DNA from: Methanomassiliicoccales archaeon
Lineage (GTDB): Archaea > Thermoplasmatota > Thermoplasmata > Methanomassiliicoccales > UBA472
Reading direction: 5' to 3'
Length of the DNA: 64,000 bases
Assembly: GCA_038740345.1 (NCBI GenBank)
Contig: JAVYMA010000009.1
Span: forward strand, 3,017-67,016
Every line of letters starts with the position of its first letter. Within the stretch, counting starts at the first letter, position 1. The translations under genes and the position numbers were made by a program. Below are positions 6,910-17,551 of this stretch, in pieces. The notes beneath the pieces were generated by a model. That model did not search any database, was not told the DNA's origin, and worked only from the letters and a program-made list of their open reading frames with translations.

Positions 6910-6983
6910 GCCCGAGTGGGGTAGCTTGGACATCCTAGCAGGCTGCGGACCTGCAGACCCGGTTTCGAATACCGGCTCGGGCG
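6910..6983 (+). tRNA. tRNA-Arg (anticodon GCG)
   Basis: Cloverleaf folded by hand:
- Acceptor: GCCCGAG/CTCGGGC.
- D stem: GGGT/TCCT.
- Anticodon arm: GCAGG-CTGCGGA-CCTGC.
- Variable loop: 4 nt, AGAC.
- T arm: CCGGT-TTCGAAT-ACCGG.
- Discriminator G; no encoded CCA. Confidence 0.85.
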
Positions 6984-6994
6984 CTCCTTTCTCA

Positions 6995-8926
6995 TCACAG
7001 CCCTACTCTTTCCTTGATCTCCACGTCCCCGGGGGGCAGGATGCGAGATATTTCCTCCTCAGGCACTTGCAGCTCCTTCGCTAAGCTGGAGGAAAGCTTG
7101 CTTCGAGGCATATCCCCCGGAATGATAACCACATACTTGCTAGAGGAGCGAAGGGAGGAGGGAGGGCCGCACATGACCTTGCGCGCTCCCTGGACTTGGA
7201 CCTCGCCCACAGCTAGCTCCATCTGGATATGGTGTACGTAGTTGCGCTTCCCGCGGATCACGAACGCGCCTCTAGGGACGAACTCTCCCGCTTCTGGCGT
7301 CTTGGAGACCTGGTCAGGTAGCACCCAATAGGCGCTCCCCTCCCTTATCCCCGCGTTCCAGGCCTTGGAGTGAGCTAGAGCGAAGGCGCAAGCTTCCTCC
7401 AGCTCCTTCTCTGTGGCGCTCGCCCCCTCCTTTATGACCACACTGGGAGCGCCGTGCACATCGGCGTGGGCGTAACGGTCCGCTGGCGTAAGATGCTTCT
7501 TCACTAACTGGTCATTGGTGCGCGCATCTCTCCCCGCGAGGACAAGACGTCCTCCGCTGGTGAAGAACCATTTATAGGCCTCGAACCAGAACTGCTTGGT
7601 AGGCTTGATCTCCAATCTTTCCTGCTGCGCTTGGAGCGCTTCTTTTTGTCTCAGCTCGTTGATTTTACTTTCTGTCTCCTTTATCAGTTGTGAGGAGCGT
7701 TCGGCCTTATCCCTCGCGTCCCTGGCCTGAGCATAGAGCAGACTCGCGTTCTCCTCCAATCCTTTGGTGTAATCCACTCTTATCTCAATCCCTGCCAGTA
7801 AAATATCGGCCTCTCGCCTCTCAGGAAATATGGATGCGATCTGGGCATCGCCTTTGACCCTTTGCCTGACCTCGTCCCAATCTAGGCCCCTAAGCTCAGC
7901 CAGGCGAGCTAGGATGGTTTGAGCTTCAGAATAGTTGGAATAGAGGGTTTCCGCTTTTTTCGTCAGTTCGGTTGCTTCGGCTCGAGACTTGGATTCCGCC
8001 TCTCTAAGTTGAGTGAGCTGCCTTTCCAGGCGCTGTATCTCTGGATTGCCCACGGACATCTCTTGCAAGAGACTGGCCTTCTCCAAATAGTACCCTAGGG
8101 CTTCAGAAAAGCTGGGGAATTCATGCTTTTTCACGCTCTGATATAGAAGCAGGGGAATGGGAGTGGCGTCCAGCGGCTTCTCACCGTTCTGCATATAAAG
8201 GTATCCGTGCTGGCATGTGGCTGTTTGTTGCACAAGTTCCAATGCGATGCGGGATATCGCCGCTAGATCCTCGGCACTCATTTCACTGGCTTTTTTGGCC
8301 TTATCTATTCCCGCACGCAAGCAGACCTCTTCGGCATACAGGCCACCGAGATTGACTACCGTGGCCAAAGTCCTTACCAGGTCTGATTTGGAGGATTGCA
8401 CGGCAAGTTTAAAGTCCTCCACCTTCTTGACAAGTGGATTGAATCGGGCCGGAGGGAATTCGTAACTCGCTCCTGGTCGCACATCGCGATGCTTCCAAGT
8501 TTTGGAGACAAGGCAATTTATTATCTTGCTCTGGTTGACAAGAAGCAGATTCCCGTCCCCGAAAAGCTCGATTATCACCTGATATTCTTCTTCTTTTTTA
8601 ACATCCAATACCACCACTCTGTCGAATTGATGCTGGCGCACGCTCGTGATGCGAGCATTGGAAAGAAGCTTGCGCAGGTGGACGGCGAATTGGGAAGGAG
8701 CTTCTGGGATGTTGGGCCTCTCCTTCGCGAGGAAGAGAAACCTCTGATCGAGGAGGAGCACCTCTCTTCTACCCACTCCGGGGACATTCACCCTCAACAG
8801 CACGTTCCTCTTATCCCAATGGAAGATCTTGTCTAGGTATCCTCCGATGAGCTCCTGCATCTCTTGGACCACGCGTAGCACATCGAAGGCGCTCATCTCC
8901 TTCTTCATCGTTGATATGAAACTCAA
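6995..8926 (-). CDS. NFACT-family protein (Rqc2/NEMF/FbpA homologue, ribosome quality control)
   Basis: 643 aa. It has an N-terminal NFACT-N-like region, a long central coiled coil, and a C-terminal NFACT-R/DUF814-like block (RYAHADVHGAPSVVIKEG...AYWV). Confidence 0.8.
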   Translation of the reverse strand: MSFISTMKKEMSAFDVLRVVQEMQELIGGYLDKIFHWDKRNVLLRVNVPGVGRREVLLLDQRFLFLAKERPNIPEAPSQFAVHLRKLLSNARITSVRQHQFDRVVVLDVKKEEEYQVIIELFGDGNLLLVNQSKIINCLVSKTWKHRDVRPGASYEFPPARFNPLVKKVEDFKLAVQSSKSDLVRTLATVVNLGGLYAEEVCLRAGIDKAKKASEMSAEDLAAISRIALELVQQTATCQHGYLYMQNGEKPLDATPIPLLLYQSVKKHEFPSFSEALGYYLEKASLLQEMSVGNPEIQRLERQLTQLREAESKSRAEATELTKKAETLYSNYSEAQTILARLAELRGLDWDEVRQRVKGDAQIASIFPERREADILLAGIEIRVDYTKGLEENASLLYAQARDARDKAERSSQLIKETESKINELRQKEALQAQQERLEIKPTKQFWFEAYKWFFTSGGRLVLAGRDARTNDQLVKKHLTPADRYAHADVHGAPSVVIKEGASATEKELEEACAFALAHSKAWNAGIREGSAYWVLPDQVSKTPEAGEFVPRGAFVIRGKRNYVHHIQMELAVGEVQVQGARKVMCGPPSSLRSSSKYVVIIPGDMPRSKLSSSLAKELQVPEEEISRILPPGDVEIKERVGL

Positions 8927-8963
8927 TCTTCTGGAAAATACTTGTGGCCGAGCCTCTCGAAAT

Positions 8964-8972
8964 CTTTATCAA
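8964..8972 (+). promoter_or_regulatory. TATA-like box upstream of tRNA-Thr
   Basis: CTTTATCAA is centred about 30 nt before the tRNA 5' end at 8998. Confidence 0.3.
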
Positions 8973-8997
8973 TGACGAGCGTCTACGAGTGGCAGAC

Positions 8998-15631: not shown

Positions 15632-16249
15632 ATGTATCTTCCCAATAGAAGATATCCGATGGTGCAAAGAAGTCTTAAAGAAGACATTAGGACGGCATTT
15701 GCTACGCCAGGTACTTGGCCCACGATTAGGAGATATCTTGTCAACACTATCTTTGACTCAACGTTTGTTATGCTTGGCATCGTTATCGGGAGCGCCTTCT
15801 CCACCGATCCTAACTTGAGAATAATCATCGTCACGATATTGACTAGCTCGGTCGCGCTGGGTATATCCACTGGTGTCAGCACTTATGAGGCAGAGAATTT
15901 AGAGCAGAAAAAGAGGATAGCCGAAATCGAGAGGGCAATGCTTAGACAGTTAGAAGATACCCACATAGGTCGGTCGGCCAGGATAAGCATGCTCATCATC
16001 TCCTTCATCATCTTCCTTGCTCCGCTCGTGGTGGGGGGGATAATACTTACACCTTTTCTCCTCCTGGATGAAAGTCAGATAATAACCGAGGCTTATGTGG
16101 CCATAGGACTAGCGATTACCGTCCTCTTTGTCACTGGTGTTCTAATGGGTCGTTCTGGCAAGAGAAATCCAATTCTTCAGGGTGCCAGAATGGCCTTGAT
16201 TGGAGCAATTGCTTTCCTTATATGTTTCTATATCGAATCGCTGATCTGA
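15632..16249 (+). CDS. VIT1/CCC1-family membrane protein (putative Fe/Mn transporter)
   Basis: 205 aa. TM helices are separated by a charged helix (YEAENLEQKKRIAEIERAMLRQLE), the layout of short archaeal VIT-family proteins. An alternative ATG lies at 15659. Confidence 0.5.
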   Translation: MYLPNRRYPMVQRSLKEDIRTAFATPGTWPTIRRYLVNTIFDSTFVMLGIVIGSAFSTDPNLRIIIVTILTSSVALGISTGVSTYEAENLEQKKRIAEIERAMLRQLEDTHIGRSARISMLIISFIIFLAPLVVGGIILTPFLLLDESQIITEAYVAIGLAITVLFVTGVLMGRSGKRNPILQGARMALIGAIAFLICFYIESLI

Positions 16250-16279
16250 GATTAAAAACGTTTTTTATTGATATAGATA

Positions 16280-17326
16280 TCAACAAATCCGAGGTACTGG
16301 ATCACCTACTGGAGGCTCGAGAACCCTTTTACCTCCTACCTCCGTTTTTAGCACTACGCCCTTTATCCTCGAGGTTGCTCTACCGATGATGGCTGCTTTT
16401 CTGCCATATTCATGCCGACGAATGGTTTTGAGCACCTCTTCTGCCATCTCGGGGACTACTCCGAATAGCATTTTACCTTCATTTCCGATGGTCAACGGAT
16501 CAAGCCCTAACATCTCGCAGGCGTTTCGGACTGGTTCTGATATAGGTACGGCGTTCTCTTCTATCTCTATACCCACTCTAGATTTTGAGGCCCACTCATT
16601 CACTGCATTCGCTAATCCACCTCTAGTAGGGTCTTTCATGCAGACCACACCACCTACCTGAAGAACATCTTTCACAAGACCGTTCAAGGGTGCTATGTCG
16701 CTCGATATTTCAGTCTCGAAGCCATACCCTTCGCGGAAGGAAAGAAGAGCTATTCCATGATCCCCTAACGTACCGCTGACTATTATTACATCTCCATCGC
16801 GTAGGTTATCATCTGTCATCCAGTTAGAATCCACCTTGCGGTATTGGGAGGCGATCTCTAGGTTATGATCCAGATATTCATTTCTTCTTCCGATTCCCGA
16901 TGTGCATATGACCATCTTTTCGATGGCCCCCGCTTCCATGACCTTCGTATCGCCTGTAGCTACTGGGACCCCGCTTAGCCTTGACGTCTCCCCTATGCTT
17001 CTACTCACTCGCTCCAAGACATCGATCTCTAGCCCTTCCTCTAAGATCATCGAGCAGGAAATGGCCAAAGGTCTCCCCCCTATCGCCACTATGTCATTAA
17101 CCGTTCCGCAAACACTGAGTGATCCTATATCCCCGCCAGGAAAGAAGAGAGGCTTTACGGTGTGTCCATCCGTTGTGAATACGATTCCATCTACGACAGA
17201 AGAATCGTCAAAAGACTGTAAGGGCACTTCACTTTTTATCTGGGGCATAAAGGGCACGATATGTGTGTGGATGAGTTCCTGCATCATCTCGCCCCCCGCA
17301 CCATGCCCCATTGTAACCCGCTTCAT
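16280..17326 (-). CDS. hypE: Hydrogenase maturation protein HypE (PurM/AIR-synthase-like fold)
   Basis: N-terminus VTMGHGAGGEMMQELI and the exact HypE C-terminal motif ...GDPVPRIC, with a terminal Cys. Length is 348 aa. Confidence 0.8.
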   Translation of the reverse strand: MKRVTMGHGAGGEMMQELIHTHIVPFMPQIKSEVPLQSFDDSSVVDGIVFTTDGHTVKPLFFPGGDIGSLSVCGTVNDIVAIGGRPLAISCSMILEEGLEIDVLERVSRSIGETSRLSGVPVATGDTKVMEAGAIEKMVICTSGIGRRNEYLDHNLEIASQYRKVDSNWMTDDNLRDGDVIIVSGTLGDHGIALLSFREGYGFETEISSDIAPLNGLVKDVLQVGGVVCMKDPTRGGLANAVNEWASKSRVGIEIEENAVPISEPVRNACEMLGLDPLTIGNEGKMLFGVVPEMAEEVLKTIRRHEYGRKAAIIGRATSRIKGVVLKTEVGGKRVLEPPVGDPVPRIC

Positions 17327-17476
17327 GCCAGGTCCATAGCCACACCCATTTTAAACTATTCTCAAGTCCATTCAATCCTCGCCACTTAGTTCTCATCCTA
17401 TATCTAATCCTAACATTCTAACCTTTTAATTCAGACAAAGACTTATCTGGGCATGGTGCATAACCCGCCTGAGCAT

Positions 17477-17551
17477 GGGCCCGTGGGGTAGTCTGGATTA
17501 TCCTTCTGGCCTTCGAAGCCAAAGACCCGGGTTCAAATCCCGGCGGGCCCG
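17477..17551 (+). tRNA. tRNA-Arg (anticodon UCG)
   Basis: Cloverleaf folded by hand:
- Acceptor: GGGCCCG/CGGGCCC.
- D stem: GGGT/TCCT.
- Anticodon arm: CTGGC-CTTCGAA-GCCAA, with one C-A mismatch at 27:43.
- Variable loop: AGAC.
- T arm: CCGGG-TTCAAAT-CCCGG.
- Discriminator G. Confidence 0.8.

Follow-up and report, generated by a model that had tools for sequence, protein, structure and literature searches.

Two tRNA genes in a 64-kb stretch of contig JAVYMA010000009.1 from a Methanomassiliicoccales archaeon (below, the window, meaning this whole stretch of DNA), those for tRNA-Thr(GGU) and tRNA-Val(UAC), are interrupted in the D-arm by short inserts. We consider these inserts to be genuine protein-spliced archaeal tRNA introns, located at tRNA positions 20/21 (Thr) and 23/24 (Val) and removed by the α'2-type splicing endonuclease (EndA) of the order, and put the probability of this reading at about 85%. 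The structural motifs, the covariation of paired positions, and the collinearity of the exons with intron-less orthologues identify the inserts as bulge-helix-bulge introns maintained by selection. Judging from their distribution among relatives, both introns were already carried by the ancestor from which a widespread environmental subclade of Methanomassiliicoccaceae descends, and more distant members of the order are without both. The finding is mostly ordinary, because such introns are already on record for the order; no new kind of element or enzyme is involved.

Structure of the Thr and Val introns

ARAGORN and the Rfam tRNA model each report three tRNA genes in the window, which combine to four (Table 1). 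A scan of our own, which looked through the window for a T-arm together with a matching 7-bp acceptor stem, recovered the same four and found no fifth. Covariance-model alignments place an insertion of 26 nt in the Thr gene, and of 34 nt in the Val gene, after the GGU of the D-loop and before the D-stem's 3' strand. The anticodon loops of both (UUGGUAA and CUUACAC, respectively) are uninterrupted, and a 37/38 intron is absent from all four genes. ARAGORN miscalls the two interrupted genes as Gly-GCC or, with its intron option, as Ser-GGA and Arg-CCU, because it models only introns of the anticodon loop. The inserts, only 25 and 32 nt long, contain no group I or group II ribozyme core and match no Rfam intron family. 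No sequence similarity is detectable between them, as their local alignment score of 6 was reached in 543 of 2000 shuffles. The original prediction, made from the letters of the window, had listed four tRNAs, two with D-arm introns and none with an intron at 37/38, and had regarded the two introns as unrelated in sequence; the first statement is borne out by ARAGORN and Rfam, and the second by the shuffles.

A bulge-helix-bulge motif consists of a 4-bp helix between two 3-nt bulges and is cut after the second nucleotide of the bulge (PMC4090602, PMC6379350). Such a 3-4-3 motif can be drawn for both inserts. In the Thr gene, the central helix H is formed by AGAG of the D-loop (9011-9014) and CUCU of the insert (9036-9039); the bulges are GUA (9015-9017) and AAA (9040-9042), and the inner helix h' is GCGCUA/UAGCGC (9018-9023 with 9030-9035). 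The D-stem itself, GCU(U)/(U)AGC, supplies the outer helix h, which has 3 bp and a U/U apposition. The Thr intron can thus be read as a strict motif. Its excision would give ...GAGGU|AUAGCG..., with a D-arm, GCUU-AGAGGUA-UAGC, identical to that of the intron-less orthologue in locus L006 (GCUUAGAGGUAUAGCG). A register with a 5-bp central helix, which is the minimum-energy fold of the Thr precursor, was considered and rejected; its product would lose A21, unlike the intron-less orthologues.

The Thr intron also contains GCTACTG, which matches the 5' strand of the acceptor stem, GCCACTG, at six of seven positions. A 74-nt tRNA-like alternative can be drawn from inside the intron (9020-9093, plus strand), and a mascRNA-like Rfam match to it is weak (26 bits). 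This alternative is probably a product of chance; the introns of relatives are without the GCTACTG likeness.

In the Val gene, helix H pairs GUCA of the exon (D-loop positions 19-21) with UGAC of the insert (12585-12582 with 12553-12550), between the bulges UGU (12581-12579) and AGA (12549-12547); the inner helix h' is GGAGC/GCUCC (12578-12574 with 12558-12554). Only G18:C25 and the 16:26 pair make up the outer helix. G18:C25 is invariant across the 32 Val orthologues that we compared, while 16:26 is U:A in 10, C:G in 3 (the window included) and a C/A mismatch in 19, so that the second outer pair is formed in 13 of the 32. In Val, then, the core is canonical and the outer helix minimal.

The exact position of the Val intron was refined by comparison. 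In the window sequence, 22/23 fits as well as 23/24 because of a repeated G; the intron ends in A in 25 of the 32 orthologues, and there only 23/24 retains the C12:G23 pair. Excision of the Val intron is predicted to give GUCU-AGCGGUCA-UGAC-G, which is collinear with tRNA-Val(UAC) of locus L016 (399-471, 73 nt), a gene that has no intron and has the D-arm GUUU-AGCGGUUA-UAAC. We rejected a different Val fold, the minimum-energy one for the window, in which the end of the intron mimics the 3' strand of the D-stem and pairs with its 5' strand; C12 is paired in this way in just 7 of the 32 sequences.

Table 1. Interrupted and uninterrupted tRNA genes of the window, their predicted parts, and the adjoining NFACT gene
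Feature	Position	Strand	Basis
tRNA-Thr(GGU), 97 nt, D-arm intron	8998..9094	+	Rfam tRNA, 58.8 bits
Thr exon 1, tRNA positions 1-20	8998..9016	+	Rfam tRNA; identical to the 5' part of intron-less orthologues L006-L009, L016, L020
Predicted Thr intron, AGCGCUACUGGAUUAGCGCCUCUAA, 25 nt, position 20/21	9017..9041	+	Fold and intron-less orthologues
Thr exon 2, tRNA positions 21-73	9042..9094	+	Rfam tRNA, sequence
tRNA-Val(UAC), 105 nt, D-arm intron	12498..12602	-	Rfam tRNA, 58.8 bits
Val exon 1, tRNA positions 1-23, ends ...GGUCAUG	12580..12602	-	Rfam tRNA, sequence
Predicted Val intron, UGGAGCUUUGGCAACACCAACGCUCCUGACAG, 32 nt, position 23/24, in 3' strand of D-stem	12548..12579	-	Fold and orthologues
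Val exon 2, tRNA positions 24-73	12498..12547	-	Rfam tRNA, orthologue alignment
tRNA-Arg(GCG), intron-less	6910..6983	+	ARAGORN; Rfam tRNA, 51.7 bits when scanned alone
tRNA-Arg(UCG), intron-less	17477..17551	+	ARAGORN; Rfam, 56.1 bits
NFACT (Rqc2-like) gene, adjoins tRNA-Thr, outside the introns	6995..8926	-	Pfam NFACT_N and NFACT-R_1

Orthologues, recurrence and covariation

The NFACT gene was used as the anchor for lineage and for syntenic loci, in a scan in which each GTDB species was represented by one genome. The confirmed NFACT loci, 20 in number and with 40-65% identity, all belong to metagenome-assembled genomes (MAGs) of Methanomassiliicoccales or Methanomassiliicoccaceae, or to MAGs that carry the label Thermoplasmata or "methanogenic archaeon". 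The genome is that of a member of Methanomassiliicoccales (Thermoplasmatota); the earlier impression of a euryarchaeal or Thermoplasmatota-like genome agrees with the NFACT matches and with the synteny of the four tRNA genes. The order Arg-UCG ... Val (intron) ... Thr (intron) - NFACT - Arg-GCG is shared with close MAGs and with metagenome contigs (L002, L004, L015, L028-L058). Val and Thr genes are convergent and lie 2.2-4.3 kb apart in the syntenic loci (3.4 kb in the window).

The intron architecture recurs in independent assemblies, namely 5 GenBank MAGs and 36 metagenome contigs of the Joint Genome Institute (JGI) from many samples, the latter being the matches of a pattern scan for the interrupted Val gene; this pattern had no match in viral contigs. 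Such recurrence refutes an assembly or sequencing artefact or a chance resemblance, to which we give practically no credence. MAG loci L002, L004, L005 and L015 carry both introns, and the two introns co-occur in every locus that reaches both genes. In more distant members (L006-L009, L016, L020, L013, L014, L018), the Thr gene upstream of NFACT is 72 nt long and uninterrupted. None of the loci examined has a second copy of Thr-GGU or Val-UAC.

Covariation was assessed in 32 distinct Val and 12 distinct Thr orthologues from MAGs and metagenomes. The exons of both genes are near-invariant, as expected of working tRNA genes, and the intron sequences of both are highly variable, as seen for Val in the 32 orthologues. 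Helix H of Val is nonetheless paired in 99.2% of cases, with the pair at D-loop position 20a being C:G in 25 sequences and U:A in 7, and four of the five pairs of h' show double-sided changes. Altogether, 9 Val pairs, in 63 cells, are changed in both partners; covariation scores 0.180, compared with 0.072 after shuffling, and partners slid out of register give 0.019-0.060. For Thr, 96.4% of all cells are paired (97.9% in H), and four pairs, all within H and h', are changed on both sides, including exon A16:U, which becomes C:G in L032 and L046. The Thr score is 0.090 against 0.039 after shuffling, with far lower values for the slid-partner controls. In neither gene does any of 500 shuffles reach the observed score, counts that should not be read as probabilities, the sequences being related. 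The inner helix h' is thus present and covarying in both genes.

These observations bear directly on the idea that the inserts are not spliced at all, the genes being either decaying pseudogenes or sources of tRNAs that keep an enlarged D-arm permanently. On this account, one might expect the splice-competent fold to lie above the energy minimum, as it does. This has to be set against near-invariant exons around inserts that evolve fast under a pairing constraint, and against insert boundaries that agree with the intron-less orthologues to the nucleotide. An insert of 25-32 nt, if retained, would wreck the D-stem of Val or, in Thr, the geometry of the G18/G19 loop, and the loci examined offer no second copy of either gene. 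We regard unspliced inserts as very unlikely.

Splicing endonuclease of Methanomassiliicoccales

Searches for EndA started from the M. jannaschii sequence, which is identical to that of PDB structure 1A79. A profile of the catalytic unit, and then a query with the EndA labelled 'Thermoplasmatales archaeon', retrieved proteins of Archaeoglobi, Methanococci and other Thermoplasmatota and none of Methanomassiliicoccales; the contig with protein P0195 was set aside as that of a different organism, its GC content being 37% against 54-58% in the intron-bearing relatives. A search of representatives, followed by clustering and a profile of the Thermoplasmata-type EndA, was successful. It gave three proteins, labelled Methanomassiliicoccus sp. 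(P0458 and P0483) and Methanomassiliicoccales archaeon (P0481, on a 3.2-Mb contig), each of 351 amino acids, as are, approximately, nearly all of the 120 top matches of this profile.

tRNA_int_endo_N and tRNA_int_endo each match all three of these proteins twice. The catalytic triad of Tyr, His and Lys (Y290, H298, K329) is invariant and is found in the C-terminal unit only. This α' architecture, in which a single chain of about 290-350 amino acids contains two EndA units in tandem, is that of the homodimeric α'2 enzymes of A. fulgidus and T. acidophilum. The CSL or ASL loop of broad-specificity enzymes, an insertion that bears a Lys, sits at the site of K175 in A. fulgidus (PMC3488258). At this site, the Methanomassiliicoccales sequence FYGKKLGKALQLSL aligns without gaps to FYGSEKGDLVTLSL of A. 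fulgidus and HYGNVEGNFLSLSL of M. jannaschii, so that there is no inserted loop, and the Tyr-His loop of the Methanomassiliicoccales EndA, YEDDPQKSH, is free of the stretch of basic residues next to the catalytic His that would mark a broad-specificity enzyme with an NEQ-type basic loop. By sequence, the EndA of the order is a narrow-type α' enzyme. The suggestion that the lineage might have an unusual endonuclease architecture finds no support in these proteins.

The genomic neighbourhood of the gene differs between groups: EndA-GAPDH-TFIIB is found in loci of the Methanomassiliicoccales type, and LonB-EndA-metallo-beta-lactamase in other Thermoplasmatota (loci compared: L060-L063 and L021-L023). 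The GAPDH gene of L060 is in two open reading frames (ORFs), probably due to a long-read assembly error.

Proposed splicing reaction and its alternatives

In the primary transcript, nucleotides of the exon D-loop or D-stem would base-pair with the intron's 3' portion, forming the 4-bp helix along with both 3-nt bulges. EndA (of the homodimeric α'2 type, 351 amino acids in the order) would then cut after the second nucleotide of each bulge, and an RtcB-type RNA ligase would join the exons; the normal D-arm could form only afterwards. The 3-4-3 core is recognised independently of the mature domain, and the EndA of the order would treat it as a transplantable motif. Splicing itself, the occurrence of the same EndA in the genome of the window, and the ligation step are predictions.

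Several points weigh against removal of both introns by such an enzyme. EndA is absent from the window and from the examined loci of close relatives, as searched with phmmer and a hidden Markov model against six-frame ORFs; in the window, Pfam finds none in 45 of the 62 long ORFs, and the other 17 were judged by sequence alone. The α' class is established for the named Methanomassiliicoccales proteins and is extended to the clade of the window by bracketing. By nearest-neighbour folding, a conformer other than the splice-competent one always has the minimum energy: the latter lies 2.3 kcal/mol above the minimum in eight of nine Thr sequences and 3.6 kcal/mol above it in L029, and from 2.6 to 6.7 kcal/mol above it in Val. 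The Val outer helix has just 1-2 bp, with the C/A mismatch in 19 of 32 sequences, and α'2 enzymes are said to cut strict motifs only (PMC4090602, PMC4033280).

The Val intron, at least, might for these reasons need an endonuclease of relaxed specificity, be it an additional paralogue or subunit of EndA or a modified α' enzyme of the subclade. The near-missing outer helix and the unfavourable energy of the Val conformer both speak for such an enzyme, and the wild-type α'2 EndA of A. fulgidus barely cuts a relaxed motif (PMC3488258). Val nevertheless still allows both 3-nt bulges and a 4-bp helix to be drawn, and its core is canonical. The known EndA of Methanomassiliicoccus sp. and other Methanomassiliicoccales is a plain α' enzyme, whose loop at the K175 site equals in length those of A. 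fulgidus and M. jannaschii, and which has no basic run. Other orders with α'2 enzymes (Methanosarcinales, Methanocellales, Thermoplasmatales) also have a few non-canonical introns (PMC8450103). On balance, we find a relaxed enzyme improbable, and prefer cleavage of both introns by the α'2-type EndA of the order.

Relation to known tRNA introns

Non-canonical bulge-helix-bulge tRNA introns are reportedly the subject of Marck & Grosjean 2003, said to be the original definition paper, and of Sugahara 2008. Reviews up to 2014 ascribe only canonical introns to Euryarchaeota with α4 or α'2 endonucleases (PMC4090602, PMC4033280). A census of 217 archaeal genomes with tRNAscan-SE 2.0 lists, for three genomes of Methanomassiliicoccales, 138 tRNA genes with 13 canonical and 6 non-canonical introns (PMC8450103, Supplementary Table S7); the same census has 11 non-canonical introns in Methanosarcinales, 4 in Methanocellales, 2 in Methanopyrales and 1 in Thermoplasmatales. 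Methanomassiliicoccales have 0.14 introns per gene, fewer than the 0.21 of the archaeal mean (PMC8450103). The original prediction had considered that this lineage may have an unusually intron-rich tRNA complement, which these figures do not support. Beyond the table of PMC8450103, we found no literature that links EndA or tRNA introns with Methanomassiliicoccales.

The proportion of interrupted genes, one-half, comes from a four-gene sample within 10.6 kb. At the published rate for the order (6 of 138 genes), at least two of four genes would carry a non-canonical intron with P of about 0.011, the two genes in question being neighbours. The introns of the census resemble those of the window in that they come from the same order and number approximately two per genome, as in the window; the table gives neither their genes nor their positions (PMC8450103). 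The Thr and Val introns may be clade-specific gains outside the six that were counted, because the more distant members that we read have an intron-less Thr-GGU, and L016 an intron-less Val-UAC as well.

Introns of Crenarchaeota/Thermoproteales, Thaumarchaeota, Nanoarchaeota and ARMAN (PMC4090602, PMC4033280) have much in common with those described here: they are short, have the 3-4-3 motif, occupy D-arm sites, of which 20/21 and 22/23 are known (PMC4090602), and are free in sequence beyond the pairing. In contrast to the systems of the Crenarchaeota/Thermoproteales type, the host in our case belongs to Thermoplasmatota, and the EndA of its order is α', not (α-β)2 or ε2; there is one intron per gene, with no sign of mass proliferation, and the two introns are orthologous among relatives and vertically kept, rather than copies of each other.

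With the 37/38 introns of Euryarchaeota that are cut by α'2 EndA (A. fulgidus, 1RLV and 2GJW; T. acidophilum, 2OHC; H. volcanii), the introns of the window share the 3-4-3 core and, as far as sequence tells, the enzyme class, with two tandem units and one catalytic triad. They differ in their D-arm site and in the outer helix, which consists of the split D-stem in Thr and of 1-2 bp in Val, not of the 5-bp anticodon stem. The relaxed motifs (hBH, HBh' and bulge-helix-loop) that are processed by (α-β)2 or ε2 EndA with CSL or ASL loops (PMC3488258, PMC6379350) resemble the Val intron, whose 3' splice site is poorly closed by the outer helix; unlike them, Val formally keeps both bulges, and the EndA of the order is without an insertion of the CSL/ASL type.

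Other features of the window

The Arg-GCG gene is dropped by the speed filters of Rfam in 64-kb scans and is recovered when its region is scanned alone. Its T-stem has U:A at 53:61 (CCGGU/ACCGG), where G53:C61 is found in the relatives' orthologues and in nearly every tRNA; the U53:A61 pair is a compensated double change, and is sufficient for the filters to lose the gene.

Two genes of the photolyase family are encoded in the window, a DPRP photolyase-related gene (10813-12369, minus strand), which sits between the intron-bearing Val and Thr genes, and a gene with a DNA_photolyase domain (29721-31091, plus strand). Methanomassiliicoccales are an order of strict anaerobes. An SPFH/Band_7 gene seems to be divided between two overlapping ORFs (49856-50305 and 50253-50804, plus strand), of which the second matches only the second half of the Band_7 profile; it may represent a frameshift or a pseudogene. 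A match to the fluoride riboswitch model (24967-25027, minus strand) is below threshold, with 20.2 bits against a gathering score of 34 and E = 0.4, and is most likely due to chance.

Significance for archaeal tRNA splicing

A tentative interpretation, which we consider possible though by no means the favoured outcome, is that the subclade gained two D-arm introns that always occur as a pair and that an ordinary α'2 enzyme removes both, including the Val intron at 23/24 with its outer helix of 1-2 bp and its fold away from the energy minimum. If so, the textbook link, in which α4 and α'2 enzymes go with strict motifs at 37/38 and non-canonical introns with (α-β)2 and ε2 enzymes, would be looser than stated, and the Thr/Val pair would be a natural set of substrates for defining the requirements of α'2 endonucleases. 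The minimal outer helix of Val sits uneasily with the strict-motif rule for these enzymes, and is a natural test of its strictness.

There is also a practical consequence. Genomes of this clade will seem to lack tRNA-Thr(GGU) and tRNA-Val(UAC) in automated annotation unless a search for non-canonical introns is used, because tools that consider only the anticodon loop miscall both genes. Finally, the two introns add to the record a well-supported non-canonical example in a lineage with a narrow-type α'2 enzyme, with 32 and 12 covarying orthologues and with outgroups that have no intron. This example is relevant to the suggested coevolution of endonuclease architecture with the position of introns, and to the recency of intron gain.

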